A program made the position numbers and the translations under genes. Under the pieces are notes generated by a model, which was not told the origin of the DNA, searched no databases, and saw only the letters and a program-made list of their open reading frames with translations. DNA of 64,000 nt from Patescibacteria group bacterium (GTDB lineage: Bacteria > Patescibacteriota > Patescibacteriia > Patescibacteriales > JAQTRU01), in NCBI GenBank assembly GCA_028711655.1, contig JAQTRU010000001.1, positions 6,648 to 70,647 of the forward strand. The letters are read 5' to 3'. Positions 1 through 64,000 of this stretch are shown here, piece by piece (position 1 is the first letter of the stretch; every line of letters starts with the position of its first letter).

Positions 1-139
1 CTAAGCTCTAAATCCTAAACAAATTCTAAATTCAAATTATCAAAATTCAAAACTTCATATTTTGATAGCTGTTTGGGATATTTGGATTTTGGTAATTTGG
101 TATTGTTTAGGATTTAGAGTTTCGGATTTCGGATTTATA

Positions 140-2131
140 CTAAGGGCATTCGCTCCCCGCTGTTGGCGCGCCGGCGCAACAGGAAGGATTGCCGGCGCAG
201 CCCGGCCCCGAGCTCGGCTTAAAACAATTCTGATTTATGTCTTTTACCCCGGAACCGACTTGCGCCCGATACCTAGTTGAATCATTAAAGGTGGAGTGCC
301 TTATTTCCACCCTTGTCCCGTCCGGGTCGCCATCATCATTATTATCTATATTATTTTTCGCTATCCAATATCCCGGCAATTCCGGATCCGGTTCAGGAGG
401 AGAGAGGGTGGATTTTGCAGAAATTAGATTAATCAACTTATGTTCAATATCGTCTCTGCCATTATTTATTATTATACTGCCCGTTCTCAAGCTGGAAGAC
501 ATCATCGCTTTGTTAAAATCTATTAAAATCGGCTTGGCCAAATGAGCGCCGGTAGCCCCCTGACTAAGGAGCCGCTCTTCTCCGAACGAATTTTCCTGGG
601 AAGTGGCGGTAATTTCCGGCGGGCTTAAATCAACTATCTCACTAATGGAAAAAAGCCATTGATAATTATCGCCGGCAAGGGGATTGGGGCTGTTTTCATT
701 ATAAAAACTGGCTGGGCCGTCAGCATCTCCGTCTCGATTGCCATCCAGGGAATTGAAAGCCATGTCAGCCACCCCGGCCAGGGGAAGCAGGGATAGGGGA
801 TAATTCTTCCCCTCCCCATCCTGACAATGGCTGTTAGCGCATGTATTGTAAGGGCTGCGGCTGGCGCAATTATCAGCTCCGCAATCAGCCAAAACCGCCG
901 CTTTTATTTCTACTTTTATCTGGCTGTCTCCGGGCAGGCAGTAAATTTTTTCTCCGCAGCCGTTAACTCCGCATTGAATATCGCTTATAAACTCTATGGT
1001 TTTGTATTGATTGGAAATATTAAATTTCCCTTTAAGGCAGGTATCGGCTCCGCAGGAAAAATACCCATCGTTAGCCGGATTGCAATCAACTCCGCCTACG
1101 CATTTTACCGCTATCTGGCCGCTTACCTCTTCCGCGTTGCCGGAAACGGTTAAGGGGTTGATGGCTTCGTTAAAATTTATCTGAATAACAGAGTTTCTCG
1201 GCTTAGTACTGCCCGGCTTGGGCAAAATTCCCCCTTTATCCGCCGCTCTTACTTGCGGTGGGGTTAAATCAAGTTTTTCGCTCACTTTAAACTGCCACTC
1301 CAAATAGTCTCGGCTGCAAGAACTAAAAACATTGCCCCCGTCCGACTTTTTTATGTCATTGCTTAAATAAACCGTATACCAAACGCTTTCCGAAGGAGAA
1401 CCAAGATAAGCTTTCGGGGAAAAAACAAAAACCTTGTTGTCCTTTGTAATAACATTAATTCCGGTAATAATGCTGTTTGGATCGCTAGTTTTGAATAATT
1501 TGACATGGTTGTCCGAAGGGACGCTTTCTTTTTTAATCTCATCGCCGGCATCGCAAAAAACTCCGTTATTATTGGTGTCATCACAAATGGTTTTGGGGTC
1601 AATTTCTTCCCTGAAACTTACTATAATGGAAGTGTTTCTTGGCACCTCCTGCTGGCTGGGTTCAGGATAAACGCTTTCTACCGAGCAGGAGCCCAAAACG
1701 CCGATGCCGCCGCCAGCGCCCCCGCTCGGGCCGCCGCCAGCGCCCCCGCTCGGGCCGCCAAAAGTCGCTCCCATCAATCTGTTTAAAACAAAACTGGCAA
1801 TGGCAAAAGAGGACAAAATAATTACCAAACCGATAATAGCGTTTTTCAAAATATTCTTGGCTTTGGCAATTTTTTCTTCGTTGCCTTCGGAAACCATCCA
1901 CATCCAGCCGGCGTACATAATCAAACAAACCGCTATAATTCCCAAGAATCCCAAAGCCGCTTGAATAACCCGGGCGATTATAATGCGCGGGTCATCTCCG
2001 CTTAACCCGATTTGCTCTCCGTATTCCATTCCTAAATCGGCCTGGGCGTAAACAAAATCAGCTATCACAAAACTAGCTATAGCTAAAAACATTACTATAA
2101 TTATTAAATTTTTTTTGGATTTAAACACCAT
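140..2131 (-). CDS. Secreted/surface protein: signal peptide, two-TM TrbC/VirB2-pilin-like N-terminal module, tandem GGPSGGAGG linker, long Cys/Asp/Gly/Asn-rich extracellular C-terminal region
   Basis: 663-aa ORF. N-terminus MVFKSKKNLIIIVMFLAIASFVIADFVYA (signal peptide) then two hydrophobic helices separated by EGNEEKIAKAKN, which is the T4SS pilin-like fold. Exact 27-bp tandem duplicate at ~1700-1760 encodes GGPSGGAGG twice. More than 30 Cys in the C-terminal half. Confidence 0.6.
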   Translation of the reverse strand: MVFKSKKNLIIIVMFLAIASFVIADFVYAQADLGMEYGEQIGLSGDDPRIIIARVIQAALGFLGIIAVCLIMYAGWMWMVSEGNEEKIAKAKNILKNAIIGLVIILSSFAIASFVLNRLMGATFGGPSGGAGGGPSGGAGGGIGVLGSCSVESVYPEPSQQEVPRNTSIIVSFREEIDPKTICDDTNNNGVFCDAGDEIKKESVPSDNHVKLFKTSDPNSIITGINVITKDNKVFVFSPKAYLGSPSESVWYTVYLSNDIKKSDGGNVFSSCSRDYLEWQFKVSEKLDLTPPQVRAADKGGILPKPGSTKPRNSVIQINFNEAINPLTVSGNAEEVSGQIAVKCVGGVDCNPANDGYFSCGADTCLKGKFNISNQYKTIEFISDIQCGVNGCGEKIYCLPGDSQIKVEIKAAVLADCGADNCASRSPYNTCANSHCQDGEGKNYPLSLLPLAGVADMAFNSLDGNRDGDADGPASFYNENSPNPLAGDNYQWLFSISEIVDLSPPEITATSQENSFGEERLLSQGATGAHLAKPILIDFNKAMMSSSLRTGSIIINNGRDDIEHKLINLISAKSTLSPPEPDPELPGYWIAKNNIDNNDDGDPDGTRVEIRHSTFNDSTRYRAQVGSGVKDINQNCFKPSSGPGCAGNPSCCAGAPTAGSECP

Positions 2132-2529
2132 TTTGTAAAATTTCTAATTTCTCCCGCCACTTTATTATATTCATGGCGGACGGGATCCTCCGCCTCTGGC
2201 GGGGTGATAATTCACCCCGGTAGTAAAAACCTTGTTTCACTGCGGGGCAGACCTAATTTCTAAAAAATGTCTAATTCCTGAATTTCTAATGTCAAAAATG
2301 TTTCTAATTTGGAAATTAGACATTTGGACATTTGAATTTTTACCTGCCCGCTAGCCTACGGCAGCTAGGTAGGCGGGTTAGAAATTAGAAATTGGGTCAA
2401 TTAGGAATTTTTTATATTATCTTGTTATTTTATTATTTTATTATTTTATTATTTCCGCCGCGTTGACTATTCCCCTCTTTTGTTATTTAATACTATTATA
2501 ACATAAATAAAAGCCAGAGGGCAAACAAA

Positions 2530-3986
2530 ATGACAATTGAACAAATAGTAAAAAAAATTAAAGAAAATAATCCCAAAGCGGATACGGACATGCTGAAACT
2601 GGCATATGATTTTGCCATGAAGGCCCATGGCGAACAAAAAAGGAAGACGGGGGAACCATATATCCAGCACTGCCTGCATACAGCCTTTGTTTTGGCGCAA
2701 ATTAAGGCGGATTTAAATACAGTCATCGCCGGCATCCTCCATGATATTCCCGAGGATACCGATTATACTCTGGAGGATATAAAAAACAATTTCGGAGAAG
2801 AAACCGCTTATTTGGTTGAGGGAATCACCAAATTAAGCAAAATAAAATATCGCGGCATTGAAAGATACCGGGAAAGTTTAAGAAAAATGTTCCTATCCAT
2901 GGCAAGCGACTTAAGGATTATTATAATTAAATTTGCTGACCGTCTCCACAACTTAAGGACCTTGGAAGGGCTGCCGCCGGAAAAACGCCTGCGTATCGCC
3001 AAGGAAACCCTGGAAATTTACGCTCCCATTGCCGGACTTCTGGGAATCTGGAGTTTGAAATGGCAGATGGAAGACATTTGTTTTAAGCATCTTTACCCGG
3101 AAGAATATAAAAAAATAGAGTATAAATACGAAGTGGAAAAGAAGGTTGAACATACCCAATATATCCAAAGGATAAAAAATATTTTAAAGAAAAATTTTGA
3201 AGAAGCCGGCATTAAATATAAAATAGAAAGCCGATTTAAACACCTTTACAGTATTTACCAAAAAATGCAGAAAAAAGACAGGCAATTTAATGAAATTTAT
3301 GATGTTTTCGCCCTCCGGGTTATTGTGCCAAACGTTAATGATTGTTATAAAGTCTTGGGAATCATCCATACTCTTTGGAAGCCAAAAGCCAACCGCTTTA
3401 AGGATTATATCGCCTCGCCAAAACCTAATGGCTACAAAAGCCTGCACACCACCGTCTTTGGTCTGGAAGAAAAAGCCATTGAATTTCAAATCAGAACCAA
3501 AGAAATGAATGACGAAGCCCTTTACGGTCTCGCCGCCCATTGGTATTACAAACAAAAAAGGGGCGGCAAAGAGGAAAACCGCTTTATTGGTTCAGAGAAA
3601 TCTTAGATATCCAGCGGGAAGCTGAGGATACGAATGACTTCGTAAAAAAAATAAAATTTGACATCTTCGGCAACAGAATTTTCGTTTTTTCTCCCAAGGG
3701 CGATGTTTTTGAACTTCCGGAAGGATCTACGCCGATTGATTACGCTTACGCTGTCCACACCGAAATCGGCAATAAGGCAACCAGGGCCCTGGTTAACGAT
3801 AAAATAGCCGATTTGGATAAAGAATTAAAAAGCGGGGATCTGGTGGAAATTATCATAGATAAAAACCGCCCGGGACCAAACCGGGCCTGGCTAAAATTTG
3901 TTAAAACCGCCAACGCCCGCAACCGGATAAAACATTATTCCAAGACACCCATGGAAAACTTTAAAAATTTTTTTCCAAAATTTTAG
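2530..3986 (+). pseudogene. rel: RelA/SpoT-family (p)ppGpp synthetase/hydrolase (HD, synthetase, TGS), interrupted by a frameshift in an A6 run (~3554-3559)
   Basis: ORF 2530..3606 has the HD motif HDIPEDT and the synthetase domain. ORF 3540..3986 in another frame continues with a TGS domain (VFSPKGDVFELPEGSTPIDYAYAVHTEIG). The overlap contains the homopolymer caaaaaag. Confidence 0.7.
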
Positions 3987-4891: not shown

Positions 4892-6259
4892 TTATTTTTC
4901 TTTATTTAAATTCAACTTTTTTTCTATTTCTTCTTTTATTTTTTTCTGGGTGATAACCTCCTGAATCCCGGAATCCATATCCCTGAATAAAATGGTCCCG
5001 TCCATAACTTCTTTCTGCCCCAAAATAAGGCTAAATTTCGCCCCTATCCGATTAGCTTCTTCTAATTGGACTTTTAGGCTGTCCTTGGTGAAAGCTTGCC
5101 GAATTTTAAATCCGGCCCGGCGCAACTCTTCAAATAAAACAAAAGCTTTGCGCTTGGCCTGCTCCCCTAACTGGGCTAAAAATATTAGATCCCCTTCCTC
5201 GCTTTTCAGGGGGATATTTTTTTCCCTTATTCTGGTTATCGTTCTTTCTATCCCCACGGCAAATCCGCAAGCCGGTGTCGGCCGACCGCCCATATATTTT
5301 ACCAGGCCGTCATACCGACCGCCGCCGCCCAAGGCTAGTTTGCTCGGCATCGCCCCGCCTTCTTCAACCGCCCAAATTTCAAATACGGTCCGGTTATAAT
5401 AATCCAACCCCCTTACCAAATAAGGGTTCAGATTGTAATTAATATCCAATTCGTCCAAATATTCCAAAACTTTAATAAAATGCTCCCGGCAACTGTCGCA
5501 TAAATAATCCACTATCTGCGGAGCTTCTTCCCTGGCTTCCAAACATTTTTCTTCTTTGCAATCAAGGAGCCGCAAGGGATTTTTTATTATTCTCTTCTTG
5601 CAATCGCCGCACAATTTAGACCGTCGCCCCCTCTCTTTGTAAAATTCAAGGAGTTTGGCCAAATATTCTTTGCGGCATTCTTCGCACCCAATGCTATTAA
5701 TCTGAATTTGGGCGTTAATCTGCAGTTCGCAGAAAAAATTATAAGCCAGTAGAATTAATAAAACATCAGCTACCGGCGCCTCTTCGCCGAATATTTCCAA
5801 ATTAAATTGAAATGACTGCCGATACCGGCCGGCTTGCGGTTTCTCATGCCTGAAAATAGGACCCAGCCAAAACATCTTAACCGGCTGGGGCAGGTTAAAC
5901 ATGCCATGCTCAATATAAGACCTCACTAAAGAAGGGGTGGCTTCCGGGCGCAAAGAAATTTTTTCTCCGTTTTTGTCAACAAAGGTATACATCTCCTTGG
6001 TGACGATGTCGCTGCTTCTGCCGCTTGATCTTTCATATAATTTTGTGTTTTCCAAAACCGGAGTTTCAATTCTTTTGAAACCATAAGCTCGCGCCAATTC
6101 CGTCGCTTTCTTTGTCACCAAATCCCAGTATCTGTATTCGTCAAACAAAACATCTTTCATTCCTTTTAAGCGGGAAAATGCGAAACCGCCGCTTTTCTCT
6201 TTTTCTTTTACTCTCCTGATTTTTGGCTTTTGATTTTTTGTGTTTTTTCTTCTCAGCAT
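4892..6259 (-). CDS. hisS: Histidyl-tRNA synthetase (class II); start may be the internal Met at ~6160
   Basis: Motifs RGLDYYNRTVFEIW and GGGGRYDGL. The N-terminal 33 aa is Lys/Arg-rich and may not be translated. Confidence 0.85.
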   Translation of the reverse strand: MLRRKNTKNQKPKIRRVKEKEKSGGFAFSRLKGMKDVLFDEYRYWDLVTKKATELARAYGFKRIETPVLENTKLYERSSGRSSDIVTKEMYTFVDKNGEKISLRPEATPSLVRSYIEHGMFNLPQPVKMFWLGPIFRHEKPQAGRYRQSFQFNLEIFGEEAPVADVLLILLAYNFFCELQINAQIQINSIGCEECRKEYLAKLLEFYKERGRRSKLCGDCKKRIIKNPLRLLDCKEEKCLEAREEAPQIVDYLCDSCREHFIKVLEYLDELDINYNLNPYLVRGLDYYNRTVFEIWAVEEGGAMPSKLALGGGGRYDGLVKYMGGRPTPACGFAVGIERTITRIREKNIPLKSEEGDLIFLAQLGEQAKRKAFVLFEELRRAGFKIRQAFTKDSLKVQLEEANRIGAKFSLILGQKEVMDGTILFRDMDSGIQEVITQKKIKEEIEKKLNLNKEK

Positions 6260-6824: not shown

Positions 6825-6835
6825 TTAATTTAAAA

Positions 6836-6940
6836 ATAATAAAATAATAAAATAATATAAAAATTTAAGAGAAAAATCTATTATATAGATTTCTAGGTTA
6901 TTTTATTTCTATATTATTTTATTATTTTATTTCTACAACA
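6836..6940. repeat. Inverted arrays of the word aataaaat / attttatt flanking the lepB upstream region
   Basis: aataataaaataataaaataata ... tattattttattattttatttc. Confidence 0.7.
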
Positions 6941-6965
6941 ACTATAACACTAAGCGAAAAAAAAA

Positions 6966-8090
6966 TCAAATTTCGGGCCTACGCGGACTATCATAGATAA
7001 ACATCGCGTCTCCATAGCTATAAAACCGGTATTTCCTTTTTATGGCCTCACTATAAGCTTTATCAATATTTTTCTTTCCGGCCAAAGCGCAAACCAGCAT
7101 TAAAAGGGTGGATTTGGGCAGATGAAAATTGGTAATCAGGCCATCAACAATCTTAAATTTATAGCCAGGATAAATGAAAATATCCGTCCAACCGGAATAA
7201 TCGCGTATCGCATAACGCATATCGCATAACGAATTTGAAGTTTGTAATTTATTTGCGATATGCGATTTGCGACTAGCGATATGCGAAAAAATCGTTTCCA
7301 GCGCCCTCGCGCTCGTTGTCCCTACCGCTATCACTCTTCTGCCTTCAGATTTGGCCAAAAAAATTCTAGCGATAGTTTTTTTATCTACTTCCGCCCACTC
7401 CGCATGCATTTTGTGTTTTTTTATATTATTAACCTTAACGGGCGCAAAAGTTCCCAAGCCAACATGAAGAGTCACATATTCTATATGTACGCCTTTTTTC
7501 TCCAATTTCTTTAACAAGGCCGGGGTAAAATGAAAACCGGCGGTCGGGGCGGCTACGGATCCTGTTTTTTTTTCGCTGGCGTAAACCGTCTGATAATTCA
7601 TGTCGTCAGATTTCTGTTTTTTATCTCTTTTTATATAGGGAGGCAGGGGCATCAATCCGATTTTATTTACGATTTTTACAAATTCTTTTTTATTTTTATT
7701 AAATTTTAATTCCCAGGTTCCATTTTGATTATTTTTTATAATTTTAGCTTCCATTTTTTTCTTAAATTCAATTTCTAGACCGACTCTCGCTCCCCGCCCG
7801 CCGATCAAGCATTGCCAAATCGCCGACGAATTTTTTTTCAAAAGAAAAACCTCAATTTTTCCTCCCGTATCTTTTTTCCTTCCAAATAATCTCGCCGGCA
7901 TTACCTTGGAATTATTAAGGACGAGAACATCGCCTGGCCGAAAACAATCAACAATATTATAAAAATGGTCATGTTTTATTTCTCCTGTTTTTTTTGATAA
8001 TAAAAGAAGCCGCGAGCGGTCTCGCGGTTTAACAGGCTTTTGGGCAATTAAATTTTTCGGCAGAAGGTAGTCAAAATCTTTTAACTTCAT
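6966..8090 (-). CDS. queA: S-adenosylmethionine:tRNA ribosyltransferase-isomerase
   Basis: MKLKDFDYLLPKNLIAQKP ... GWTDIFIYPGYKFKIVDGLITNFHLPKSTLLML. Contains an in-frame palindromic insertion (see 7203-7290). Confidence 0.85.
   Translation of the reverse strand: MKLKDFDYLLPKNLIAQKPVKPRDRSRLLLLSKKTGEIKHDHFYNIVDCFRPGDVLVLNNSKVMPARLFGRKKDTGGKIEVFLLKKNSSAIWQCLIGGRGARVGLEIEFKKKMEAKIIKNNQNGTWELKFNKNKKEFVKIVNKIGLMPLPPYIKRDKKQKSDDMNYQTVYASEKKTGSVAAPTAGFHFTPALLKKLEKKGVHIEYVTLHVGLGTFAPVKVNNIKKHKMHAEWAEVDKKTIARIFLAKSEGRRVIAVGTTSARALETIFSHIASRKSHIANKLQTSNSLCDMRYAIRDYSGWTDIFIYPGYKFKIVDGLITNFHLPKSTLLMLVCALAGKKNIDKAYSEAIKRKYRFYSYGDAMFIYDSPRRPEI
7203..7290. repeat. Palindromic array of the cgcata word inside the queA coding sequence (in frame)
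   Basis: cgcgtatcgcataacgcatatcgcataacg-(loop)-gcgatatgcgatttgcgactagcgatatgcg, translated as ...SHIANKLQTSNSLCDMRYAIRD. Confidence 0.7.
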
Positions 8091-8896: not shown

Positions 8897-8995
8897 ACGG
8901 GAGTTAAAAGTTATAAAGTTAAAAGTTATAAAGTTAAAAGTTATAAAGTTACTAATTTTCAAATACTTTATAACTTTATGGACTTTATAAACTTT
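8884..8995. repeat. Palindromic array of the word aagttataaagtt; same family as 36885-36962
   Basis: gttataaagttaaaag x3, then inverted ctttataactttatggactttataaacttt. Confidence 0.75.
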
Positions 8996-9023
8996 CCAAC
9001 TAATCTGCTAATTTAATATAACT

Positions 9024-10610: not shown

Positions 10611-10731
10611 AGATTTATTATTTTTTACATCTTGCCACGCCTTTTATACTTTAATCTTACCACTTTCTTTAAAATTCACAAATCTGCGTCATTCGCTATA
10701 TTCGCATAAATTCGCATCTATTAGCGTTATC

Positions 10732-11199: not shown

Positions 11200-11214
11200 A
11201 AGATAATCCAAATC

Positions 11215-11290
11215 TACGAATTTATCCGAATGCCCCGAATGCTTTGATTTAGGAATTCGGAGCATTCGGATAAAATTCGGATTAATTCGG
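11215..11290. repeat. Palindromic array of the word attcgga/gaatgc
   Basis: ccgaatgctttgatttaggaattcggagcattcggataaaattcggattaattcggattacg; same word family as at 60530-60625. Confidence 0.7.
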
Positions 11291-11291
11291 A

Positions 11292-14200
11292 TTACGACTT
11301 CCTGAATTCGCAAATATCTTTAAAATCGCAAAACTGGCAAAGCGCGGAAGGCTTTGGCGGAAATTCGCCTTTTTTTATGGCGGCAATGGTGTTTATGATC
11401 TTTTCTTTTGTTTTGTCCAGCTCATCCTGGCTGCCCAGAAATTCAACTTCAGTATTGTTGTCCAAATAATAAAAGGCCAAAGAATCTACTTTTTGCCGAA
11501 AAAGCTCCTCGGCGGCCAACTGATAAATTAAAAGCTGATATTTTTCGTCAAGGCTTAATTTGTCTTTCGGGGTTCCGGTTTTATAGTCAATAATTTTTAT
11601 TTTGCCTGCCCCGTTGCTGCGGTGGCCGTTTATCTCATCAATCCTGTCCATTACCCCGCGCACGGTATAGAGCTCGTTGCCGACCCTGACCTTGGAATTA
11701 AATCCTTTTTCCAGAAAAATCACGTTCGGCCATGCATCTTGATGCTTTTCATAAAACTTCTTTAAAATTTCCTTGCCTTTCTTTTTATATTCCTCTTTCC
11801 GCGCCTTGGTCTCATACCAATCGTCAATCCAGCTCTGCTCGTATAATTTTAAAATTTCTTCCAAACTGATTTTAACATTTTTTTTGGCTGCTTGCGTTGA
11901 ACTTGCCGAAGCACCAAATAAATCCGTCTGCTCCCGCTTCTTTCTTTCCTCGATTAAACTGAATAATTTCTGCAAAGTAATGTGCAAGGTTTTGCCAAAA
12001 GAAAAAACATGTTTTCCCCGGACCGGAATTCTTAAAATATGGGCAAAACGGTATTGGTAAGGACAATTGGAAAACGCCGCCAATTGCGTATAAGAAAAAT
12101 AAGACGGCACCACCGACTTTACAACCTCTTTTGCCGGAACAGAAATTCTTGTCTTTAAAATATCGCCATCTTGTATTTTTGCCTGCCCCTCGAAGCCCTG
12201 GCGCAGTAGGGTGTTTTTGCCTGCCCCTCGAAGCCCTGGCGTAGCGGGGTATTTTTGTGTTTTTGTGTTTTCTTGAACAAACCCGCATTCCTCTAAAAAA
12301 CGAGAAGGTTTTTTGAGTCGAGCGCCGCCATAGTCAGCCGCCCAAGAAAAATATAAATCGTTTTTTGCCCGCGTCATGGCTACGTAAAACAATCTTCTTT
12401 CCTCTTCTAAATGGATATCGCCTTCCGGTAAAATTTCCTTGACTAAAGCGTCCGGAATGGCAATCTGCTCGCTTCTCTCAATCGTGGGAAAACGCTTATC
12501 AACTAAACCGGCAATAAAAACATACTTAAATTCCAATCCCTTGGCCCCGTGAACCGTCATTACTTTTATGGTTTCCGGACCGGCCTCCCAGTCAACCGGC
12601 ATCGCCCCTTCTTCCCCGGCGTCAATTTCCATCTGCAGTTGGGCCAAAAACGCTTTAACGCTTCTATCGTCACTGCCCTTTTCAAATTCCTCAACCCGCT
12701 TCATAAACTGGTTAAGACAGGAAGCCGCCTCCCGGCTTTTTTGCTCATCTTGGCTCATCAGATATTTCAAATAACCGCTGTCATTTAAAAAAACAAAAAT
12801 AATTTCACTGGCGTTTTTATCTCTGGCGAGGCCGGCATGCTTATCAATTAAAGATAAAACCGCGACCACTTTCTTCTGCAATTCCGGCCCCAGATTTAAA
12901 GCGGAGACATTGCGCAGAACTTCATAAAGCGACCAGGCTTTTTTATTGGCCCAATAATTAAAATTAACCAACTCGTTATAGGTAAACTTAAAAATCGGCA
13001 GGTTTAAAACGCGATAAGCCGCCGCGCTTTCATGGTAATCGTCCAATAATTTTAAATAAGCGATTATGTCCATTATTACCGGCTTGGCATAAAGGCCGCG
13101 GGAAGATAAAAATTGGTAGGGCAATTCGGCCGCGGCCAAAAATGAGCAAATTTCTTTCGCGCTTTCATTGGCTCTGACCAAAATCGCAAAATCGTCCCAA
13201 GTAGAATTTTTATCCTTAATTTTTAAATCCGCGATTTTCTCAATTACCATTCTTATCTCCTCATTCAAATCTTTGCCTTCTATAACTTCTATCACCCCCT
13301 CCCCCTTATTATCAGCTACCAGCTTTTTGCTTAATTCCGTTTTTGTGTTTCTGCTCGCCCCTCGAAGCTTTAGCGTAGTGGGGTGTTTTTGTGTTTTTGT
13401 GTTCAGTTGATACTCCAGCCGATTCGGGTCATTTTGCTTGATAAATTTATAAGACAAATTCAGAATATTCTGCTTATTGCGGTAATTATTGATTAAAAAA
13501 ATCTGCCCGGCCCGCGAATAATCTTTTTGAAACTGCAAAATATTAGATACCGAAGCCCCGCGAAATTTATAAATTGACTGGTCATCATCGCCAACGACCA
13601 CTAAGTTATTTTTCGGGGCGGCCAGCATTTTTATCAGCTCATACTGCGCCCAGTTAGTATCCTGAAATTCGTCCAGCAGTATATATTTAAATTTATCCCG
13701 ATATTTTTTTAAAATCGCCGGCCGGGCGCGGAATAATTTCAAGCAGTAGTTTATTAAATCTCCGAAATCCAAAGAGCTGCTGTCTAAAAGCAGTTGCTGG
13801 TAAACATGATAAGCGTTCGCCACTTCGTTTATCCTTGCCACTTCCTGACTTGCTATTTCTTTATTAAACTCACCTCTTTCTGTCATTGCGAGTCCCGAAG
13901 TCTCGGGACGAAGCAATCTCTGGTTAGACGCGCTTGACCGGAGATTGCCGCGTCGCTCGTTGCGCTTCGCTCCACTCGCTCCTCGCAATGACATATTAGG
14001 GGCTCCGCTCAACATATTGTCTAAATTTTCCTTCAACTCATTAGCGTATTCAAGATACTGGGCCGGATTTATATCCTCGTCTTTGGTCCGGGAAAAATGC
14101 TTTATCAAGGCGCGGATAAATTTCGTCGGATTGCCCATCGGCCGATAATAATCCAGATCAAGTTTATCCAAATTATTTTTTATTAGAGCATATTGTTCAA

Positions 14201-47484: not shown

Positions 47485-47526
47485 TCTTTTTAAAAAAGGC
47501 ATCTCTACCCGGGTGCCTTTTTTCTT

Positions 47527-49821: not shown

Positions 49822-49825
49822 ATAT

Positions 49826-49930: not shown

Positions 49931-49932
49931 TT

Positions 49933-50802: not shown

Positions 50803-50903
50803 CTTAAATAATAAAATATTAAAATAATATGAAAATAAAATAAAAAGATAAGAAGTGCTATTTTTAAATTATTTTATTATTTTTTTATTTTATTTTTAAA
50901 ACC

Positions 50904-52181: not shown

Positions 52182-52240
52182 CCACGGACTTATGCGGACT
52201 GACGCGGACTCAAGCGGAAATTAAAATAAAAAAGCCCGGC

Positions 52241-53200: not shown

Positions 53201-53229
53201 TTGTCAACAGGAGAATGGCTAAGTATAAT
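53201..53229 (+). promoter_or_regulatory. recQ promoter
   Basis: TTGTCA-17 nt-TATAAT. Confidence 0.6.
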
Positions 53230-53259
53230 TTGTAAATTTGTAAAAGATTTGTAATTTGT

Positions 53260-55374: not shown

Positions 55375-55388
55375 TTTTTTAGAAATTT

Positions 55389-55423
55389 AGGGACTTAGTC
55401 GCCACAAAGGCGACTAAGTCCCT
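55389..55423. repeat. REP-like palindrome R2 copy
   Basis: AGGGACTTAGTCGCCacaaaGGCGACTAAGTCCCT. Confidence 0.8.
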
Positions 55424-56762: not shown

Positions 56763-56777
56763 TTTACGGAACAAAAA

Positions 56778-56810
56778 AGAGGGCGGACTTGTTTTTCCGC
56801 CCTTTTCTTT
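56778..56810 (+). terminator. Terminator after purM
   Basis: agagggcggacttgtttttccgcccttttcttttt. Confidence 0.7.
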
Positions 56811-56916
56811 TTACCTGAAAAATGATAGTTTTAAATCAGACAACTTTTATTAATCTCCCGATTTACGCGTTCTTTCGCGCTGGTCCGTATAAGTCCGCGA
56901 AAATTCGCATAAGTCA

Positions 56917-58970: not shown

Positions 58971-59032
58971 TAAGTTTTTTCAGAAAACAAAAAGCAGCCC
59001 TTAATAGCCATAGGCTGCTTTTTTTAATTTTT

Positions 59033-59329: not shown

Positions 59330-59331
59330 AA

Positions 59332-59391
59332 TGCGACAATTGACAATTAACTATTAACAATTAATAGTTAATTGTCAAGTGTCAATTGTCG
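59332..59391. promoter_or_regulatory. Operator-like perfect palindrome touching the start codon of 59033..59329
   Basis: GACAATTAACTATTAAcaaTTAATAGTTAATTGTC flanked by gacaattgacaatt / gtcaagtgtcaattgtc. Confidence 0.55.
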
Positions 59392-59519
59392 TTATGAGCG
59401 GGTAATCCCGCAAAGTTCGCTATCGCTCACTACGGGACGGGCGGGAATTGAAAAGAATTCTTCAAAAAATTCTGAAATCTAAAATCTGAAATCTAAAATC
59501 TGAAATTAACAGGGAGCGG

Positions 59520-59592
59520 GTAGGGGGAATCGAACCCCCATCTTCAGCTTGGAAGGCTAACATAATAAACCATTATACGATACCCGCAGAAA
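59520..59592 (-). tRNA. tRNA-Gly (anticodon TCC)
   Basis: rc: GCGGGTA...TTAGC-CTTCCAA-GCTGA...GGGGG-TTCGATT-CCCCC-TACCCGC-T. Confidence 0.75.
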
Positions 59593-59633
59593 TCAATTTT
59601 CAATTTTAAATTTTCAATTTTAAATTACCTAAA

Positions 59634-60458
59634 CTATCCAATCTTTTTATCTTTTTTAATCTTATAGACTAAAAGAACAAAAGTCAATAAGATGATAATC
59701 AAGCTGGCAATCTGGGGAAATCTTAAATTCCAGATAACCGGGGTTTCGTCTATCCTGATAAATTCTAAACTGAAACGCAAAACAGAATACGTTATTAGAT
59801 AAAAAATAAAAAATAAAAAATAAAAAAAAATTTTAAACTGCCCTTTTTTTATAACCCAAACATGGAAAGAAATTAAAATTAGAAAAATTAAAAAATTGCC
59901 GATTGATTCATACAAAAATGTCGGGTGAAAAAAATCCGAGGAAATATATTCAAGCGGCCGCCCCATAATATCAATCGGAATGCCCCAGTCTAAATTAGTC
60001 GGCTTGCCAAAAAGCTCCCTATTAAAATAATTACCCCACCGGCCAATGGCCTGCGCCAAAGCCAGCCCCGGCGCTATCACGGCGGCCAAAAGCCAAAAAT
60101 TTAAATTGCGCTTTCGGGCGAAAAACCAGATTACAAATAAACCGGCAATAATCGCCCCGTGGATTGCCAGCCCACCCTGCCAGACCTTAAAAATATCCAA
60201 AGGATATTGCCAGTAATAAGGCAACTCCAAAAAAATATGATAAATTCGGGCGCCGATTATCCCCCCGAGAATCAGCCAAAAAGCCAAATCAACAATAGTT
60301 TCTTTTTTTAGGCCGTAATAGGAAGAAATCTTTAAGGCCGTAGCTATAGCGGCCAAAGACCCCAAAACAATAAAAAAACCATACCAATAAATATGGATAG
60401 GGCCGAAAGAAACTAAAATCGGATCAGGATTGAAGGTATGAAAAAAATTCATGTTCAA
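59634..60458 (-). CDS. lgt: Prolipoprotein diacylglyceryl transferase
   Basis: GGIIGARIYHIF ... RWGNYFNRELFGKPT. Confidence 0.85.
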   Translation of the reverse strand: MNMNFFHTFNPDPILVSFGPIHIYWYGFFIVLGSLAAIATALKISSYYGLKKETIVDLAFWLILGGIIGARIYHIFLELPYYWQYPLDIFKVWQGGLAIHGAIIAGLFVIWFFARKRNLNFWLLAAVIAPGLALAQAIGRWGNYFNRELFGKPTNLDWGIPIDIMGRPLEYISSDFFHPTFLYESIGNFLIFLILISFHVWVIKKGQFKIFFYFLFFIFYLITYSVLRFSLEFIRIDETPVIWNLRFPQIASLIIILLTFVLLVYKIKKDKKIG

Positions 60459-60529
60459 GACGTCAATTTATTTTTAAACCTTTAGATGAACCATTGATCC
60501 GAATTCTACTGTGCTTATCTTCACGAACT

Positions 60530-60625
60530 TTGAATTAATCCGAATGCCACGAATTAGTATTCGGAGCATTCGGATTATGGCAGGAAGATTTAAGTCCATA
60601 GGCAGAATTCGGATTAAAGGATTAT
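60530..60625. repeat. attcgga/gaatgc word palindromic array (same family as 11215-11290)
   Basis: tccgaatgccacgaattagtattcggagcattcggattatgg ... ggcagaattcggattaaagg. Confidence 0.7.
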
Positions 60626-60726
60626 CTAGGGGTTTAGAGCCGAAAAAATTTCTTCTACTTAGTATTATATAATAAAAAACCCAAATGAAAAAGCCGGAGA
60701 GTATTTTTTCCCCGGCTTTTTTGTGT

Positions 60727-60963
60727 TTATTGAAAAAATTTTTCTTCTTTGCTCCGATCGAAATCAGTAAATGCCGCCCAGTAAAAAACCAGGGCGCCCA
60801 CACACATCAGAGCTAAATACTGGACGTTAGCCCATTGCTGCTGCGGGTAAGGAAAGACCGGGGCATTAACCACTTTCAAAAAACAAAAAATAGTTATCGC
60901 AAGACCGAAAATGGAAACAGATATTCTTGCGACCATTCTCTTTGTGAGTGTTTTCTCCGCCAT
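60727..60963 (-). CDS. Small 2-TM membrane protein (start at MAEKTLTKR)
   Basis: Hydrophobic helices; downstream terminator aaaaagccggagagtattttttccccggcttttttg. Confidence 0.4.
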   Translation of the reverse strand: MAEKTLTKRMVARISVSIFGLAITIFCFLKVVNAPVFPYPQQQWANVQYLALMCVGALVFYWAAFTDFDRSKEEKFFQ

Positions 60964-61478: not shown

Positions 61479-61724
61479 ATATTTTATACTAAAAATGAGG
61501 CGGGGTAAATATACCAAACTGTCCCGTCCCTTTTAAAGGCGCGGGGTTTCACTATATCCCCCTTGCTCCTTTATTCTTAAACCAATTTGTATTTTATGTC
61601 AATGTTTTTATTATAGCAAAAATTGTGTTATGATAATAATATCCATAAATAATTAATTATCGCGTTCTTCCGCGTGAGTCCGCGTTAGTCAGTATAAGTC
61701 CGCGTGAGTCCGCAACAAAAAAAT

Positions 61725-62054: not shown

Positions 62055-62160
62055 AAGTTACGAATTACAAATCTTATACAAATATTACAAATAATTAAAA
62101 AACGATTATTTTGGTATTTGTAAAATTTGTAATGAATTTGTAATTTGTAACTAAGACAAC
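62055..62160. repeat. acaaata / atttgtaa palindromic array ending 13 nt before the ppsA ATG
   Basis: gttacgaattacaaatcttatacaaatattacaaataatt ... ggtatttgtaaaatttgtaatgaatttgtaatttgtaac. Confidence 0.75.
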
Positions 62161-64000
62161 ATGCCCAAATCTAATAAATTCATAAAATTTTTCAACCAAT
62201 TAACAATAAAAGATGTGCCGTCGGTCGGGGGTAAAAACGCCTCTCTGGGAGAAATGTACCGAAAACTTTCGGGAAGGGGCGTTAATGTTCCCAACGGCTT
62301 TGCCACGACCGCTTCCGCTTATAATTATTTTTTGGAAAAAACCGGAGAAAAAAAAGAAATAAAAAAAATTCTTAAAGGCCTTAATACCCATAATGTAATG
62401 GACCTGATGCGCCGCGGAGCCGCTGTACGCAAATTAATAACCAATACGCCTCTCCCGGAAGATTTTGAGAAAGAAATCATTGGCGCTTACAAAAAACTTT
62501 CGGCTGAATACGGGGTTAAAAACCTATCCGTAGCCGTCCGCTCTTCGGCCACAGCCGAAGATTTGCCGGACGCTTCTTTCGCCGGACAGCAGGACACTTA
62601 TTTAAATATCAGCGGAGAAAAAGAATTGCTTCTGGCCGTAAGAAAATGCATTGCTTCCTTGTTTACTAACCGGGCGATTTCCTATCGCGTTGACAAAAAA
62701 TTTGTCCATTTCAAAATCGCCCTTTCCGTCGGCGTGCAAAAAATGATCCGAGCCGATTTGGCCGCTTCCGGCGTAATATTTACGATTGACACCGAATCCG
62801 GATTTCCCAACGCTGTCCTGATTAACTCCATTTACGGGCTGGGAGAAAATATTGTTCAGGGCAAAGTTAACCCGGACGAATTTTATTTCTTCAAGCCTAC
62901 CGGCGCCATAATTTCCCGTTCTATCGGATGCAAAAAGTTAAAAATGGTTTACAACAATGACCCGAAACAACCGACTAAAAATGTAAGGCTTAAGCCAAAA
63001 GAGCAGGTTAAACAATCAATTACCGACGAACAGATAAAAAAATTGGGCCAGTGGGCCATGATTATTGAAAAGCATTATGGTCGGCCCATGGACATTGAAT
63101 GGGCCTTGGACGGACAGGACAAAAAACTATACATAATTCAGGCCCGGCCGGAAACCGTGCAAAGCCTTAGAAATTACAACATATTGGAGGAATATAAATT
63201 AGAAAAAAGAGGGAAAATTATAACTCGCGGCCAAAGCGTCGGCAACAAAATCGGCATGGGAGTGGCTAACCGAATTATGGAAGTGGGCGGCATTAAAAAC
63301 TTTAAACCCGGGCAAGTCTTGGTGACAGACATGACCGATCCAGACTGGGAACCGATTATGAAAATCGCTTCGGCGATTGTTACTGACAAGGGGGGCCGCA
63401 CCTGCCACGCCGCCATTGTCTCCCGCGAGCTTGGCATTCCTTGTATTGTCGGCACCAATAATGTCTCTTATCGGGTTAAAACCGGAAAAAAGGTGACTAT
63501 AAGCTGCGCCGAAGGAGAAGAGGGCTACGTTTATGAAGGCATCCTGCCTTTTAAGGTCAAAAAAACCAATGTTAAAAAATTAAAAAGGCCGAAAACCAAA
63601 ATTATGATGAATATCGGCGAACCGGACATGGCTTTTTCCACCTCCTTTATTCCCAATGACGGCGTGGGGCTGGCCAGATTAGAATTCATAATAAACAATT
63701 ACATCAAAATTCACCCCCTGGCTTTAATTAATTACGATAAGATAAAAGACAAAAATGTTAAAAAGAAAATAGATAATTTGACTGTGGGTTACGAAAACAA
63801 AAAGCAGTTCTTTGTTGATAAGTTAGCCGAAGGAGTGGCCATGATTGCCGCGGCTTTTTATCCCAAAGACGTGATTATCCGGCTTTCCGATTTTAAAACC
63901 AATGAGTATGCTAACCTGGTTGGCGGGGCCAAATATGAGCCGATTGAATCCAATCCGATGATCGGCTGGCGCGGCGCTTCCCGCTATTACTCGCCTAAAT
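62161..64000 (+). CDS. ppsA: Phosphoenolpyruvate synthase / pyruvate,water dikinase (5' portion; runs off the window)
   Basis: MPKSNKFIKFFNQL..VPSVGGKNASLGEM (ATP-grasp), phosphohistidine domain GGRTCHAAIVSRELGIPCIVG. Confidence 0.85.
   Translation, partial: MPKSNKFIKFFNQLTIKDVPSVGGKNASLGEMYRKLSGRGVNVPNGFATTASAYNYFLEKTGEKKEIKKILKGLNTHNVMDLMRRGAAVRKLITNTPLPEDFEKEIIGAYKKLSAEYGVKNLSVAVRSSATAEDLPDASFAGQQDTYLNISGEKELLLAVRKCIASLFTNRAISYRVDKKFVHFKIALSVGVQKMIRADLAASGVIFTIDTESGFPNAVLINSIYGLGENIVQGKVNPDEFYFFKPTGAIISRSIGCKKLKMVYNNDPKQPTKNVRLKPKEQVKQSITDEQIKKLGQWAMIIEKHYGRPMDIEWALDGQDKKLYIIQARPETVQSLRNYNILEEYKLEKRGKIITRGQSVGNKIGMGVANRIMEVGGIKNFKPGQVLVTDMTDPDWEPIMKIASAIVTDKGGRTCHAAIVSRELGIPCIVGTNNVSYRVKTGKKVTISCAEGEEGYVYEGILPFKVKKTNVKKLKRPKTKIMMNIGEPDMAFSTSFIPNDGVGLARLEFIINNYIKIHPLALINYDKIKDKNVKKKIDNLTVGYENKKQFFVDKLAEGVAMIAAAFYPKDVIIRLSDFKTNEYANLVGGAKYEPIESNPMIGWRGASRYYSPK

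Follow-up and report, generated by a model that had tools for sequence, protein, structure and literature searches.

Hairpin repeats of 60–190 bases, built from tandem words of 7–10 bases, occur throughout a stretch of a small Patescibacteria (CPR) genome, and are best read as a population of palindromic elements that are small, dispersed and non-autonomous. On balance we think it probable, with some reserve, that these arrays are insertional, slippage-prone repeats occupying the few unconstrained sites of the genome, chiefly 5′ leaders. The analysis covered the whole 64 kb stretch (hereafter the window) and ~300 kb from relatives.

Tandem-word arrays are enriched in non-coding DNA

Arrays of period 5–16 detected by TRF cover 1173 of the 9257 non-coding nucleotides in the window (12.7%), against 123 ± 50 (1.3%) in per-segment dinucleotide shuffles (z ∼21), while coding sequence carries 1390 array nucleotides in 54 743, against 315 ± 77 when shuffled. 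Among intergenic gaps of at least 40 nt, delimited with curated gene starts and scored as positive when holding at least 15 nt of array, 30 of 48 bear arrays, compared with 5.4 ± 2.0 in shuffles (maximum 9). The ten repeat examples quoted in the initial annotation were all found in place, and its observation withstood the dinucleotide-shuffle control that it had proposed. Its statement that nearly every intergenic region carries one was right about strong enrichment but too broad, as the share is ~63% by TRF and ~70% by eye. In close relatives, 10–16% of non-ORF bases lie in arrays. The 78 control loci from other phyla (mostly Firmicutes, 25–59% GC) have a median of 0.9% and a mean of 2.3%; the ∼10-fold higher density points to lineage specificity.

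Architecture and location of the elements

Word length has its mode at 7–8 nt, with composite units of 14–16. The palindromic arrangement first described applies to ∼19 two-armed loci; another ∼12 are single-armed arrays (for example 29814–29852, 30349–30385, 52185–52218, 53221–53259, 56875–56916 and 61669–61713). The arms are usually rich in A on the 5′ side and in T on the 3′ side, the stems are AT-rich, 20–45 bp long and without a trailing T-run, and the periods of 7–9 nt are out of phase with the DNA helix. Tandem units are 100% identical at 8902–8951, 27089–27155, 40108–40138 and 59595–59626. For the 19 curated hairpins, folding z-scores relative to shuffles span −1.8 to −11.4, the sense strand being more stable in 9 and the antisense strand in 10, so there is no general sense preference; the exceptions are the 16S hairpin and the tRNA-Gly stem, both strongly sense-biased. 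No two-armed hairpin was seen in the seven convergent 3′/3′ gaps of the window. The elements and adjoining features are as follows.

H1, 3–128, no strand assigned: taaatcc/ggattta-type hairpin downstream of a pilin gene, at the window edge (ΔG −31.5/−44.0 kcal/mol, z −7.3/−9.4)
H2, 2250–2412, no strand assigned: nested tctaattt/aaattaga hairpin with GC-rich core, pilin/relA divergent region (z −5.0/−5.8)
H3, 6826–6936, minus: aataaaat/attttatt hairpin, the entire lepB leader (z −6.2)
lepB promoter, 6941–6969: TTGATT-17-TATAGT, adjoining H3
H4, 7190–7292, minus: atcgca/tgcgat hairpin, in frame within queA
H5, 8897–9002, minus: aagttataa/ttataactt hairpin, the whole spacer separating ruvB from a small membrane-protein ORF; 3′ arm a perfect 15-nt × 3.3 array
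grpB array, 10691–10717, minus: single-arm attcgcataa × 2.8, ∼80–107 nt before grpB, on the far side of its putative promoter
H6, 11205–11291, minus: tccgaat/attcgga hairpin filling the addA stop to ydjM ATG (11199) spacer (z −8.0); 17-nt core in common with H19
H7, 17585–17680, minus: acaaat/atttgt hairpin upstream of the gene for an M16 peptidase, whose true ATG lies near 17577 (z −5.3)
rmuC array, 21139–21166, minus: aaagtttt × 3.5, adjoining the rmuC ATG
rmuC promoter, 21173–21200: TTGGCA-16-TACATT
gyrA spacer words, 22820–22875, minus: gattcttgggg/tttttaaga between gyrA and the next gene, then a canonical AAGGAGG Shine–Dalgarno
H8, 27060–27175, plus: the 16S helix 6 (V1) tip, expanded by ∼115 nt, with gcggactaat × 2.5 pairing with tccgtataag × 3.4 (ΔG −70.5 sense, −51.8 antisense)
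trpS 3′ array, 28764–28800, minus: single-arm aaaatccca words ahead of a canonical terminator
trpS leader array, 29814–29852, minus: single-arm tacgaat × 4
trpS promoter, 29861–29889: TTGCTT-17-TACAAT
Zn-ribbon array, 30349–30385, minus: single-arm gcggacta-type, between a T-box terminator and the Shine–Dalgarno of a small Zn-ribbon ORF
H9, 33460–33590, minus: gaaaatt/aattttc/caattga hairpin upstream of the gene at 32610–33458 (z −4.1)
clpP promoter, 34019–34047: perfect TTGACA-17-TATAAT
H10, 34036–34098, plus: weak AT-only hairpin/array, taatttt × 5, clpP leader (z −1.8, the weakest case)
H11, 36881–36966, plus: aaagttata/tataacttt hairpin between rny and ymdB, 3′ arm overlapping the ymdB ATG (36952)
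H12, 37742–37848, plus: tacgaat/attcgta hairpin ending 9 nt before the hup ATG (z −9.2)
hup, 37847–38131: HU gene downstream of H12
H13a, 40100–40147, plus: attttac × 4.6 array, 5′ flank of tRNA-Met
H13b, 40223–40317, plus: agatttt/aaatctg words and GC palindrome, 3′ flank of tRNA-Met
H14, 49824–49932, plus: acaaat/atttgt hairpin, the whole glyA–folD spacer
H15, 50800–50903, plus: aataaaat/attttatt hairpin, the whole folD–gdh spacer; AT-only, weak
gdh array, 52185–52218, plus: single-arm cggactnnng × 3.4, directly 3′ of the gdh stop in a convergent gap
recQ promoter, 53201–53229: TTGTCA-17-TATAAT
recQ array, 53221–53259, plus: atttgta words from −10 box to recQ ATG
Methyltransferase array, 56875–56916, plus: gtccgtataagtccgcg... 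array stopping 1 nt short of the methyltransferase ATG
H16, 59330–59395, minus: near-perfect gacaatt/aattgtc palindrome, 4 nt ahead of the ATG at 59329 (z −8.6)
H17, 59460–59632, minus: word arrays on both sides of tRNA-Gly (59513–59587), with a leader–trailer stem on the sense strand only (ΔG −50.7 versus −34.2, 10 G-U pairs)
H19, 60470–60640, minus: 170-nt hairpin element with tccgaat/attcgga core, between lgt promoter and ATG; 3′ module at 60450–60497
lgt promoter, 60664–60691
DUF4870 leader array, 61669–61713, plus: tccgcgtgag × 4.5, downstream of a conserved promoter (61609–61637)
H18, 62055–62156, plus: acaaat/atttgt hairpin, the whole spacer upstream of ppdK (ATG 62161) (z −8.1)

Word elements are further found as in-frame inserts in queA and addA. 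Four unrelated elements occupy the queA site in different lineages, and H4 adds ∼30 residues to QueA (SHIASRKSHIANK...CDMRYAIRDY); homologue lengths range from 337 to 419 aa for QueA and from 325 to 388 aa for TrpRS. At the tip of 16S helix 6, the ∼115 nt of the window compare with 14 nt in relatives L112 and L113, and the insert has a 17-nt identity with the methyltransferase leader array.

Leaders, promoters and start codons

Once over-extended TTG ORF starts were corrected and the missed hup gene was added, arrays were found to end at the start codon in ∼17 loci, as had been described. Others lie upstream of promoters (grpB and ackA, where the array at 16256–16300 precedes the −35 box and is conserved in L002), in 3′ UTRs (trpS, gdh), around tRNAs, and inside the 16S gene and ORFs. 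At lepB, clpP, recQ, trpS, rmuC and lgt, a credible sigma-70-type promoter directly precedes the hairpin or array; measured from the end of the −10 box, the hairpin begins at −8 to +25 nt. These promoter blocks are conserved in relatives. Only 11 of the 49 window genes have a clear Shine–Dalgarno (SD); anti-SD duplex energy has a median of 0.2 kcal/mol at array-adjacent starts and −2.9 at others (Mann–Whitney P = 0.006), which bears out the earlier remark that such starts have no visible SD. Many hairpins (H5, H6, H11, H12, H14, H15 and H18) begin no more than a few nucleotides from the upstream stop codon. Canonical terminators with a GC stem and T-run are separate from the hairpins (for example 40390–40439, 43261–43324, 47485–47520, 56770–56815 and 58971–59032).

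Turnover at orthologous sites and copies elsewhere

In syntenic relatives the promoter is conserved, and the leader from −10 box to ATG carries other words or none. With promoter and gene unchanged, the words at orthologous leaders are lost or replaced wholesale (tccgaat, tacgaat, gcgaat, gggattctt, or nothing). At one locus the word drifts gradually, from tccgaat through tgcgaat and tacgaat to tactaat. The lgt leader is empty in L114 and L115 (promoter...tatATG) and holds an insert of ∼190 nt in the window and L116. The Zn-ribbon leader array is present in the window and L110/L111 and absent from L113, and the DUF4870 array is absent from L115. The methyltransferase site in L114 and L115 has ctaacac words instead, the ppdK leader of L115 has tcaaat words, and the spacers orthologous to H6 (addA–ydjM) have other words. 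The tRNA-Gly leader arm is missing in L114–L116, its stem is not conserved, and the H2 region is not the same in L002 and L005. Leader hairpins nevertheless persist through this turnover at ydjM (∼10 of 12), lepB (7 of 7 genomes, promoter included), ppdK, trpS and the methyltransferase gene (3 of 3 each), while ydjM in L104 and L105 and the small ORF in L002 and L104 are hairpin-free.

Near-identical elements occur at non-orthologous loci. H14, which precedes folD, and the hairpin that precedes ppdK in L116 share 90.5% identity over 95 nt; H1 has a copy inside addA of L002 (93% over 45 nt), and the tRNA-Met flank H13b one inside queA of L089 (91% over 47 nt). Within the window, H5 is paralogous to H11 (84% over 69 nt), the trpS promoter and array recur together as a duplicated cassette before hup (83% over 71 nt), and the methyltransferase and DUF4870 leader arrays match each other. 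Words such as ATTCGTA recur at seven loci in five genomes, and the H19 3′ module is also found before ydjM in L005, L088 and L090, abutting the ATG of two different genes. The initial view that each locus uses a different word therefore fails, and its exclusion of CRISPR and of a single transposon family is supported.

Alternative explanations

The strongest competitor, which we regard as possible but rather unlikely, is a selected RNA leader module: a long stem-loop from the mRNA 5′ end to the AUG, kept for its usefulness, with tandem words as the route by which stems evolve. It might shield transcripts from 5′-end-dependent RNases (an RNase Y gene lies at 35366–36880), control SD-independent initiation, or provide a site for RNase III processing, which would free a near-leaderless mRNA or separate cistrons and tRNAs. 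The ompA and aprE mRNAs are stabilized by 5′-terminal stem-loops, and the intercistronic hairpins of T7 early mRNA are cut by RNase III. Promoters immediately upstream, missing SDs, avoidance of convergent gaps, sense-specific stems around tRNA-Gly and in 16S, and variable yet persistent hairpins (z down to −8) behind conserved promoters at lepB, ydjM, ppdK and trpS all favor such a module; the 5′-UTR hairpin originally proposed does describe many elements downstream of sigma-70-type promoters. Yet sense and antisense strands fold equally stably overall, many arrays are single-armed, identical elements sit in coding sequences and 3′ UTRs, several relatives have no hairpin at lgt, ydjM or the small ORF, and the tRNA-Gly stem is unconserved.

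We hold it unlikely that the arrays arose independently in situ, without movement, by slippage and quasi-palindrome template switching at each unconstrained site of a repair-poor lineage. Perfect tandem units, unequal arms, gradual word drift at one locus, and the lack of any transposase or target-site duplication found here would fit. This reading does not account for near-identical copies of 70–95 nt that include non-repetitive loop and flank at non-orthologous loci in different genomes, for the 17-nt identity linking the 16S insert and two leaders, or for the 3′ module common to two genes.

DNA-level regulation, whether by locus-specific operators, as first suggested, or by UP-element/promoter arrays of repeated words, appears very improbable. 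Arrays upstream of the −35 box (ackA, grpB) and TTGACA- or TATAAT-like hexamers in some words (H16, atttgta) could suggest it, but words are swapped behind conserved orthologous promoters, their diversity exceeds a plausible regulator set for a reduced genome, the periods are not helix-phased, and the same elements occur in queA, addA, 16S helix 6 and tRNA flanks. Slightly less credible still are unusual intrinsic terminators or insulators of the upstream gene; proximity to stop codons and the A-rich and T-rich arms agree with these, whereas the AT-rich stems have no T-run, separate canonical terminators exist, and the hairpin lies downstream of the promoter at lepB, clpP, recQ, trpS and lgt. 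Operators, terminators and CRISPR/TIGR were rejected as readings. Chance low-complexity sequence or assembly artefact, for which only the AT-richness of non-coding DNA and the weak AT-only H10 and H15 speak, has virtually no standing, being refuted by shuffles 10-fold below the real sequence, by absence from AT-rich Firmicutes controls, and by homologous elements in independent assemblies (NCBI, JGI, ENA).

A proposed model of dispersed palindromic repeats

Under the preferred reading of dispersed repeats, new copies would reach a site by insertion or by copying out of another locus, an event whose outcome is seen. Replication slippage lengthens and shortens the arrays, as is shown by unequal arms, by tandem copies that are perfect and by copy numbers that differ between relatives. 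Words change while the arms remain complementary, perhaps because the stem is selected, because of intrastrand templating, or for both reasons. Copies would survive only in the unconstrained sequence of a compact genome: the leader from −10 box or transcription start to ATG, intercistronic spacers, tRNA flanks, the 16S helix 6 tip and, in frame, permissive surface loops of proteins.

Against this reading, the scanned ORFs of the window yielded no transposase, RAYT or other mobilizing gene, and comparison of filled with empty sites revealed neither a clear target-site duplication nor conserved termini. The lack of two-armed hairpins in convergent gaps and the sense bias of the 16S and tRNA-Gly stems also count against it, and persistent leader hairpins with sequence turnover also fit selection for structure.

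The hairpins described as STRR in cyanobacteria and the palindromic elements of Rickettsia and organelles are close analogues. The earlier impression of an undescribed feature holds for Patescibacteria, as far as literature searches reach. The elements probably abut start codons because most genes of this lineage have no SD and, in element-free relatives, the promoter is nearly adjacent to the ATG, which leaves the leader as free space; elements there would thus be transcribed as 5′-leader hairpins. Any influence on mRNA stability, processing or translation is putative and would be secondary. Since most of them are located between promoter and start codon while others lie within the 16S rRNA gene and proteins, the elements appear to behave like dispersed selfish DNA of a little-known kind, not like gene-specific switches.

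Enrichment of tandem-word arrays in the window and in related genomes

The 64-kb window has a G+C content of ~41% and encodes housekeeping proteins (hisS, queA, ruvB, addA, ackA, gyrA, trpS, clpP, rny, ymdB, glyA, folD, gdh, recQ, purD, lgt and ppdK), a T4SS-pilin/Big_5 surface protein, five tRNAs and a 16S rRNA without an adjoining 23S gene. Its nearest relatives by protein are other Patescibacteria, Parcubacteria and Falkowbacteria MAGs. Contigs of related genomes (L-numbers below) were gathered as those encoding the matches of a homologous-protein search, with an additional metagenome scan using YdjM, and the data examined comprise the window and ~300 kb of these contigs. Gene starts and hairpin boundaries were set by hand. 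The elements referred to by name are as follows.

Curated elements of the window
3-128, H1
7190-7292, in-frame insert in queA
8897-9002, H5, upstream of a small membrane-protein ORF
11205-11291, H6, upstream of ydjM
27060-27175, insert in 16S rRNA helix 6
30349-30385, array in the leader of a small Zn-ribbon ORF next to trpS
33460-33590, H9
36881-36966, H11, upstream of ymdB
37742-37848, H12, upstream of hup
49824-49932, H14, upstream of folD
50800-50903, H15, upstream of gdh
62055-62156, H18, upstream of ppdK

The initial annotation described short words, repeated in tandem and arranged as imperfect palindromes, in nearly every intergenic region, and all of the words it quoted are present where it placed them. 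Arrays are indeed common, but their share is ~63%: with curated gene starts, 30 of the 48 gaps of at least 40 nt contain array sequence amounting to at least 15 nt, compared with 5.4 ± 2.0 in shuffled sequence. Likewise, many arrays are two-armed, while about a dozen have a single arm. Arrays with a period of 5-16 nt cover 1173 of 9257 non-coding bases versus 123 ± 50 after per-segment dinucleotide shuffles, and those in coding sequence are in excess as well (1390 versus 315 ± 77 bases). The periods reported by TRF are mainly 7-10 nt, with a mode of 7-8. Close relatives have the arrays as well: they make up 10-16% of non-ORF bases in syntenic genomes, in comparison with a median of 0.9% in 78 control loci from other phyla (mostly Firmicutes, G+C 25-59%), which were taken among the listed matches of a queA scan.

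The folding z-scores of 19 curated hairpins range from -1.8 to -11.4 against shuffles of each hairpin's own strand; plus-strand shuffles applied to both strands are biased by strand composition. Homologues of the elements are present in NCBI, JGI and ENA assemblies that are independent of one another, which rules out an assembly artefact, and chance or artefact in general is excluded by the shuffles, the control genomes and this recurrence. An Rfam scan assigned no family to any hairpin, and a sub-threshold match of H12 to a miRNA precursor reflects the hairpin shape only.

Position relative to promoters, start codons and Shine-Dalgarno sequences

The hairpins contain no stop codons, and the longest ORFs therefore over-extend through them by way of TTG codons. 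This affected the starts of smallTM, ydjM, M16 and ymdB and produced a spurious ORF at 60474-60803, while hup (HU, 94 aa; 37847-38131, + strand) was masked by a spurious antisense longest ORF (37753-38124, - strand). Starts were re-set using conserved N-termini and Pfam boundaries, and with these starts ~17 elements end 0-22 nt before a start codon. At seven of the start-abutting elements a good predicted promoter of the sigma-70 type lies directly upstream, the hairpin beginning between -8 and +25 nt relative to the end of the predicted -10 box (7 genes). Hairpins that stabilize mRNAs from the 5' end are stem-loops a few nt away from that end, and the elements at these genes may belong to this class. 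Elements H5, H6, H11, H12, H14, H15 and H18 occupy the whole spacer from the preceding stop codon to the ATG.

Genes with start-abutting elements, and predicted promoters
Genes: lepB, small membrane-protein ORF, ydjM, M16, rmuC, trpS, gene at 33458, clpP, ymdB, hup, folD, gdh, recQ, methyltransferase gene, gene at 59329, lgt, DUF4870, ppdK
lepB: TTGATT-17-TATAGT
clpP: TTGACA-17-TATAAT
recQ: TTGTCA-17-TATAAT
trpS: TTGCTT-17-TACAAT

The absence of a visible Shine-Dalgarno (SD) sequence beside the arrays, also proposed from the initial reading, is supported by duplex energies (median 0.2 versus -2.9 kcal/mol, p = 0.006), the rank test on energies being the only significant one, as a Fisher test with the automatic TRF class gave p = 0.14. 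SD use is low overall (11 of 49 genes), and the 16S rRNA has a normal anti-SD 3' end, CACCUCCUUUCU.

Some arrays have other positions: upstream of the promoters of ackA and grpB, in the 3' UTRs of trpS and gdh, and on either side of tRNA-Met and tRNA-Gly. As a conserved processing structure the tRNA-flanking stems were rejected, since they are not kept in L114-L116. The word hairpins do not serve as this genome's terminators, since canonical ones with a GC stem and T-run exist separately in the window; the stems of the word hairpins are AT-rich, 20-45 bp long, lack a T-run and often lie downstream of promoters.

Turnover at orthologous sites

The syntenic relatives keep the gene order of the stretch bounded by the M16 peptidase and pilin genes, and promoter blocks are conserved between them, yet the leaders behind these blocks differ. 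Seven genomes share the block gATTTGATTTTTTTT..TGTTATAGT upstream of lepB, and in each it is followed by an aataaaat-type hairpin, whose apex sometimes holds GC-rich insertions. The addA-ydjM gap contains a hairpin in 10 of 12 genomes and none in two, with words that differ among genomes (tccgaat; tgcaaat/tacgaat; atacgaat/tactaat; gcgaat/gctaat; gggattctt/aagaatccc; aaattta around a GC palindrome). The 3' arm there is mostly the reverse complement of the 5'-arm word; the two arms co-vary, and some force presumably keeps them complementary. The trpS promoter is conserved too, but what follows it differs: a tacgaat array in the window, a taatctg/cagatta hairpin in L110 and a GC-richer hairpin in L113. 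The methyltransferase, ppdK and DUF4870 leaders likewise change behind a conserved promoter. This turnover overturns the suggestion that the words are locus-specific operators: the promoters stay and the words do not, the same elements occur in ORFs and rRNA, and their 7-9-nt periods are out of phase with the DNA helix.

Elements are present or absent at orthologous sites in the lgt, Zn-ribbon ORF and DUF4870 leaders, in 16S helix 6 and in a queA loop. A hairpin element of ~190 nt separates the -10 box of lgt from its ATG in the window and in L116, and the promoter runs nearly into the ATG in L114 (~655-680) and L115 (~4980-5006), where the start lies only ~8 nt past the -10 box (gttaatatcagagtatATG). 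This arrangement suggests near-leaderless mRNAs in the lineage. With relatives that are 65-90% identical at the protein level, the insertion events are undatable.

Several other non-coding features were noted. A T-box leader (30429-30628, - strand) with the motif gggtggtaccgcg at 30455-30467 and a terminator lies upstream of the small Zn-ribbon ORF and trpS; it scores 41.7 bits (E = 8e-6), under the Rfam gathering threshold, and is kept in L110 and L113. The ~300 nt 5' of rny (RNase Y; 35066-35365, + strand) are 86-88% identical to L110 and L112, far above other spacers, and from this conservation may be a leader or non-coding RNA. A 176-nt piece (14710-14880, - strand) of the 438-nt addA-ackA gap, 80% identical to L005 and without an Rfam match, may be a non-coding RNA. 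Just past tRNA-Arg, the sequence at 39629-39705 (+ strand), called by neither ARAGORN nor Rfam, contains a T-arm like that of a tRNA, ggggttcgaatcc, and may represent a tRNA that is degenerate or interrupted.

Copies at unrelated loci

The initial annotation took each word to be private to its locus. This is not so: elements, and not just words, recur at unrelated loci, with non-orthologous copies sharing 83-94% identity over 45-95 nt. The hairpin upstream of folD (H14) and the one upstream of ppdK in L116 share 90.5% identity over 95 nt, H1 matches a segment within addA of L002, and a match to the 3' flank of tRNA-Met is found in the queA insert of L089. The lgt element has a 3' module (tcaatggttca..gtttaaaaataaatt.acgtcttgaacATG) that also precedes ydjM in L005, L088 and L090. 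Within the window, H5 and H11 match each other, trpS and hup share a promoter-plus-tacgaat cassette of ~70 nt, and a cgcgttcttYcgcg plus agtccgc element is common to the methyltransferase and DUF4870 leaders. The word families agtccgc, acaaat, attcgta, attcgga, aagttata and aataaaat have 2-5 loci each, and ATTCGTA is found at seven loci in five genomes.

The element itself is one long imperfect inverted repeat, and perfect tandem units together with unequal arms show recent slippage. The few site pairs compared at lgt and the Zn-ribbon ORF gave no convincing target-site duplication, and the window ORFs scanned with Pfam included no cognate transposase.

Other palindromes recur as well. A perfect 20-22-nt GC palindrome, CCTGCCTGCCGGCAGGCAGG, has five copies (39457, 39746, 40279, 48238 and 61284) and in relatives occurs at the apex of word hairpins and within queA (L005, L089, L100). 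Exact copies in 35 IMG/VR contig stretches, mostly high in GC, are uninformative for the word hairpins; in one (L117) the palindrome lies between ctaacct/ggtgaga words. The 38-nt palindrome tttagggacttagtcgccacaRaggcgactaagtccct at 35005-35042 and 55386-55423 (97% identity), each just 3' of a gene, may be a terminator-like dispersed repeat. A GC-rich family, cccgccac..gtggcggg plus gatccgcctctggcgg, is found 5' of the pilin gene (2150-2215) and of 16S (26890-26935); it also occurs in leaders of relatives (L090, L091, L094/L095, L096) and at the lepB hairpin apex in L094 and L095.

Elements within 16S rRNA and protein-coding genes

Elements also occupy an rRNA and, in frame, protein-coding genes. 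The 16S gene reaches 1614 nt through the replacement of the helix 6 (V1) tip by ~115 nt (27060-27175); this tip is 14 nt in L112 and L113. The insert pairs gcggactaat (2.5 copies) with tccgtataag (3.4 copies), forming the extended stem-loop at the tip of a variable helix that characterizes rRNA intervening sequences, and its words are common to mRNA leaders, including 17-nt identities. Pairing between the leaders and the insert, both of which contain agtccgc, was considered and rejected, as the leaders show identity with either arm and no consistent complementarity to one of them, and as the agtccgc family is present in MAG GCA_041645555.1 (L089, 1616-1668), whose 16S (L112) has no insert. Matches to group II intron domains (D1-D4) occur a few hundred nt from 16S in the closest relatives (L110 6307-6390, L111 4002-4085).

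In queA, an atcgca/tgcgat hairpin at 7190-7292 encodes an in-frame insert of ~30 residues. An alignment of 18 QueA homologues (337-419 aa) confines their length differences to two variable sites, and at the DNA level the occupants differ among relatives.

The queA site in related genomes
L096: same words as the window
L002: half of that element
L093: GC-rich perfect hairpin
L005, L089: gaaatcc words around a GC palindrome
L056: gtcattctgagc-type hairpin

By eye, the L113 trpS leader is a hairpin with the same gtcattctga...tcagaatgac ends as the gtcattctgagc-type queA hairpin of L056. In addA, too, there are in-frame inserts of both kinds; two GC-rich hairpins (12171-12269 and 13343-13403) are paralogous (86% over 59 nt) with flanking gtgttttt words, the former itself being a 38-nt tandem repeat of 2.2 copies. 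A Wzy-like ORF for an O-antigen-ligase-like membrane protein has in-frame arrays at 17853-17892, 18295-18385 and 18849-18904 (atcccaaaa, taataaaa and 6-8 copies of ttgaaaa); those of ttgaaaa resemble H9 and the flank of tRNA-Gly in sequence.

Two further coding irregularities were observed. The relA/spoT gene (2530-3986, + strand) is frameshifted into 2530-3606 and 3540-3986, where relatives have one TGS-domain protein of 485-489 aa; the gene has either decayed to a pseudogene or been affected by a sequencing error. Two neighbouring hypothetical genes are 90% identical over 150 nt (33236-33385 versus 33686-33835), which indicates a recent tandem gene duplication.

Comparison with known repeat systems

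A limited literature search found no description of tandem-word hairpins in Patescibacteria. The nearest bacterial analogue is the STRR heptamers of filamentous cyanobacteria, tandem ~7-bp words of several families in many intergenic regions that can form hairpins (e.g. at hupS-hupL), with unknown function and proposed roles in transcript stability or translational coupling (PMC2670836). The ~7-nt tandem unit and several dispersed word families are shared, but the source here is a Patescibacteria genome and not a heterocystous cyanobacterium, which makes the elements an analogue and not a member. Unlike STRRs, they are mostly long two-armed palindromes abutting the start codon, also occupy protein-coding genes (in frame), 16S rRNA and tRNA flanks, and are common to several loci as whole 70-190-nt elements.

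Rickettsia palindromic elements (RPEs), Neisseria Correia/NEMIS and enterobacterial ERIC are palindromic dispersed repeats of 100-150 nt found where genomes are reduced or compact. RPEs enter protein-coding genes in frame and also RNA genes. Correia and ERIC, although selfish repeats, change how mRNAs are processed as well; they are co-transcribed in UTRs as long hairpins, some of them RNase III substrates or promoter carriers. Similar copies at unrelated loci and presence/absence at orthologous sites link our elements to RPEs and MITEs, and in-frame insertion (queA, addA) and an occupied RNA gene (16S) are RPE hallmarks. In contrast to the conserved consensus of RPE, Correia and ERIC, these elements consist of short tandem words whose consensus turns over fast. 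MITEs also have terminal inverted repeats and target-site duplications; the few site pairs compared here showed no convincing duplication, and the scanned window ORFs no partner transposase.

In fungal, algal and sponge mitochondria, palindromic microsatellite, double-hairpin or repetitive hairpin elements with symmetric repeat units are optional between close relatives, lie in intergenic and tRNA-adjacent positions and are read as mobile (PMC7218506). Their symmetric build and optional presence resemble our elements, but they are organellar and have no report as systematic 5' leaders or in the rRNA helices of bacteria that are free-living. The helix 6 insert fits the uncharacterized ORF-less insertions of < 200 bp in CPR 16S and 23S, often at stem-loop tips and interpreted as intervening sequences that RNase III excises (PMC11270868). 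That work did not tie them to a genome-wide family of tandem-word hairpins, a link that the 16S insert provides.

Other repeat classes can be set aside. CRISPR repeats are ~24-48 nt, interspaced with spacers and beside cas genes; as the initial annotation held, these are not CRISPR, with units of 7-10 nt, no spacers, one short array per gap and no Cas domain among the window ORFs scanned. In TIGR arrays the units measure 36 nt and adjoin the gene of a Nop-domain Tas protein (PMC12045711). The 7-10-nt units without spacers do not fit, and no Nop domain was found in the scanned window ORFs. REP/BIME are imperfect palindromes of 20-40 nt with a conserved GTAG or CGTC head and RAYT association. 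The word hairpins are AT-rich, 60-190 nt and headless, and the window ORFs gave no Y1 transposase domain; the 20-nt palindrome CCTGCCTGCCGGCAGGCAGG is the more REP-like of the two.

Origin of the elements

Most likely, the elements are dispersed palindromic repeats of insertional origin whose arrays grow through slippage. They would last only in unconstrained sequence, which in a compact, SD-poor genome would mean mainly the leader. The mechanism that copies them is inferred, no transposase having been seen among the window ORFs scanned and no target-site duplication at the site pairs compared.

The main rival, itself compatible with dispersed repeats, is a selected RNA function, to which the persistence of hairpins at particular leaders points; elements so placed may affect expression. 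Selection on RNA predicts that the transcribed strand folds better through G-U pairs, as seen for the 16S insert (-70.5 versus -51.8 kcal/mol) and the tRNA-Gly stem (-50.7 versus -34.2 kcal/mol). However, the sense strand is the more stable in 9 and the antisense strand in 10 of 19 hairpins, and the tRNA-Gly stem is missing from relatives. This strand test compared sense and antisense minimum free energies; a hairpin finder that excludes G-U pairs yielded too few 1x1 mismatches to compare G-U with A-C and also caught many ordinary coding-region stems.

A more far-reaching form, which we consider unlikely, is a selected clade-wide leader system in place of SD sequences. In such a system, SD-less genes would each have a fast-evolving stem-loop from the transcription start to the AUG, either cut by a dsRNA-specific RNase to leave a near-leaderless mRNA or docked on the 30S platform instead of the SD/anti-SD helix. 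Its spread as portable promoter-leader cassettes is suggested by the cassette common to trpS and hup.

Implications

CPR/Patescibacteria are seen as streamlined, a view that is altered by ~12% of scarce non-coding DNA lying in fast-evolving hairpin repeats, which also occupy loops of housekeeping proteins and a 16S helix. For annotation, the stop-free hairpins lead to over-extended ORF starts and overlooked small genes, as with hup here; they account for part of the protein length variation and of the short uncharacterized rRNA insertions in CPR, and can disturb 16S-based surveys and assembly. The elements also bear on which repair deficiencies allow long palindromes to persist. Since they lie between the promoter and the start of SD-less genes, they offer an entry point to translation start and mRNA processing in an uncultivated phylum.
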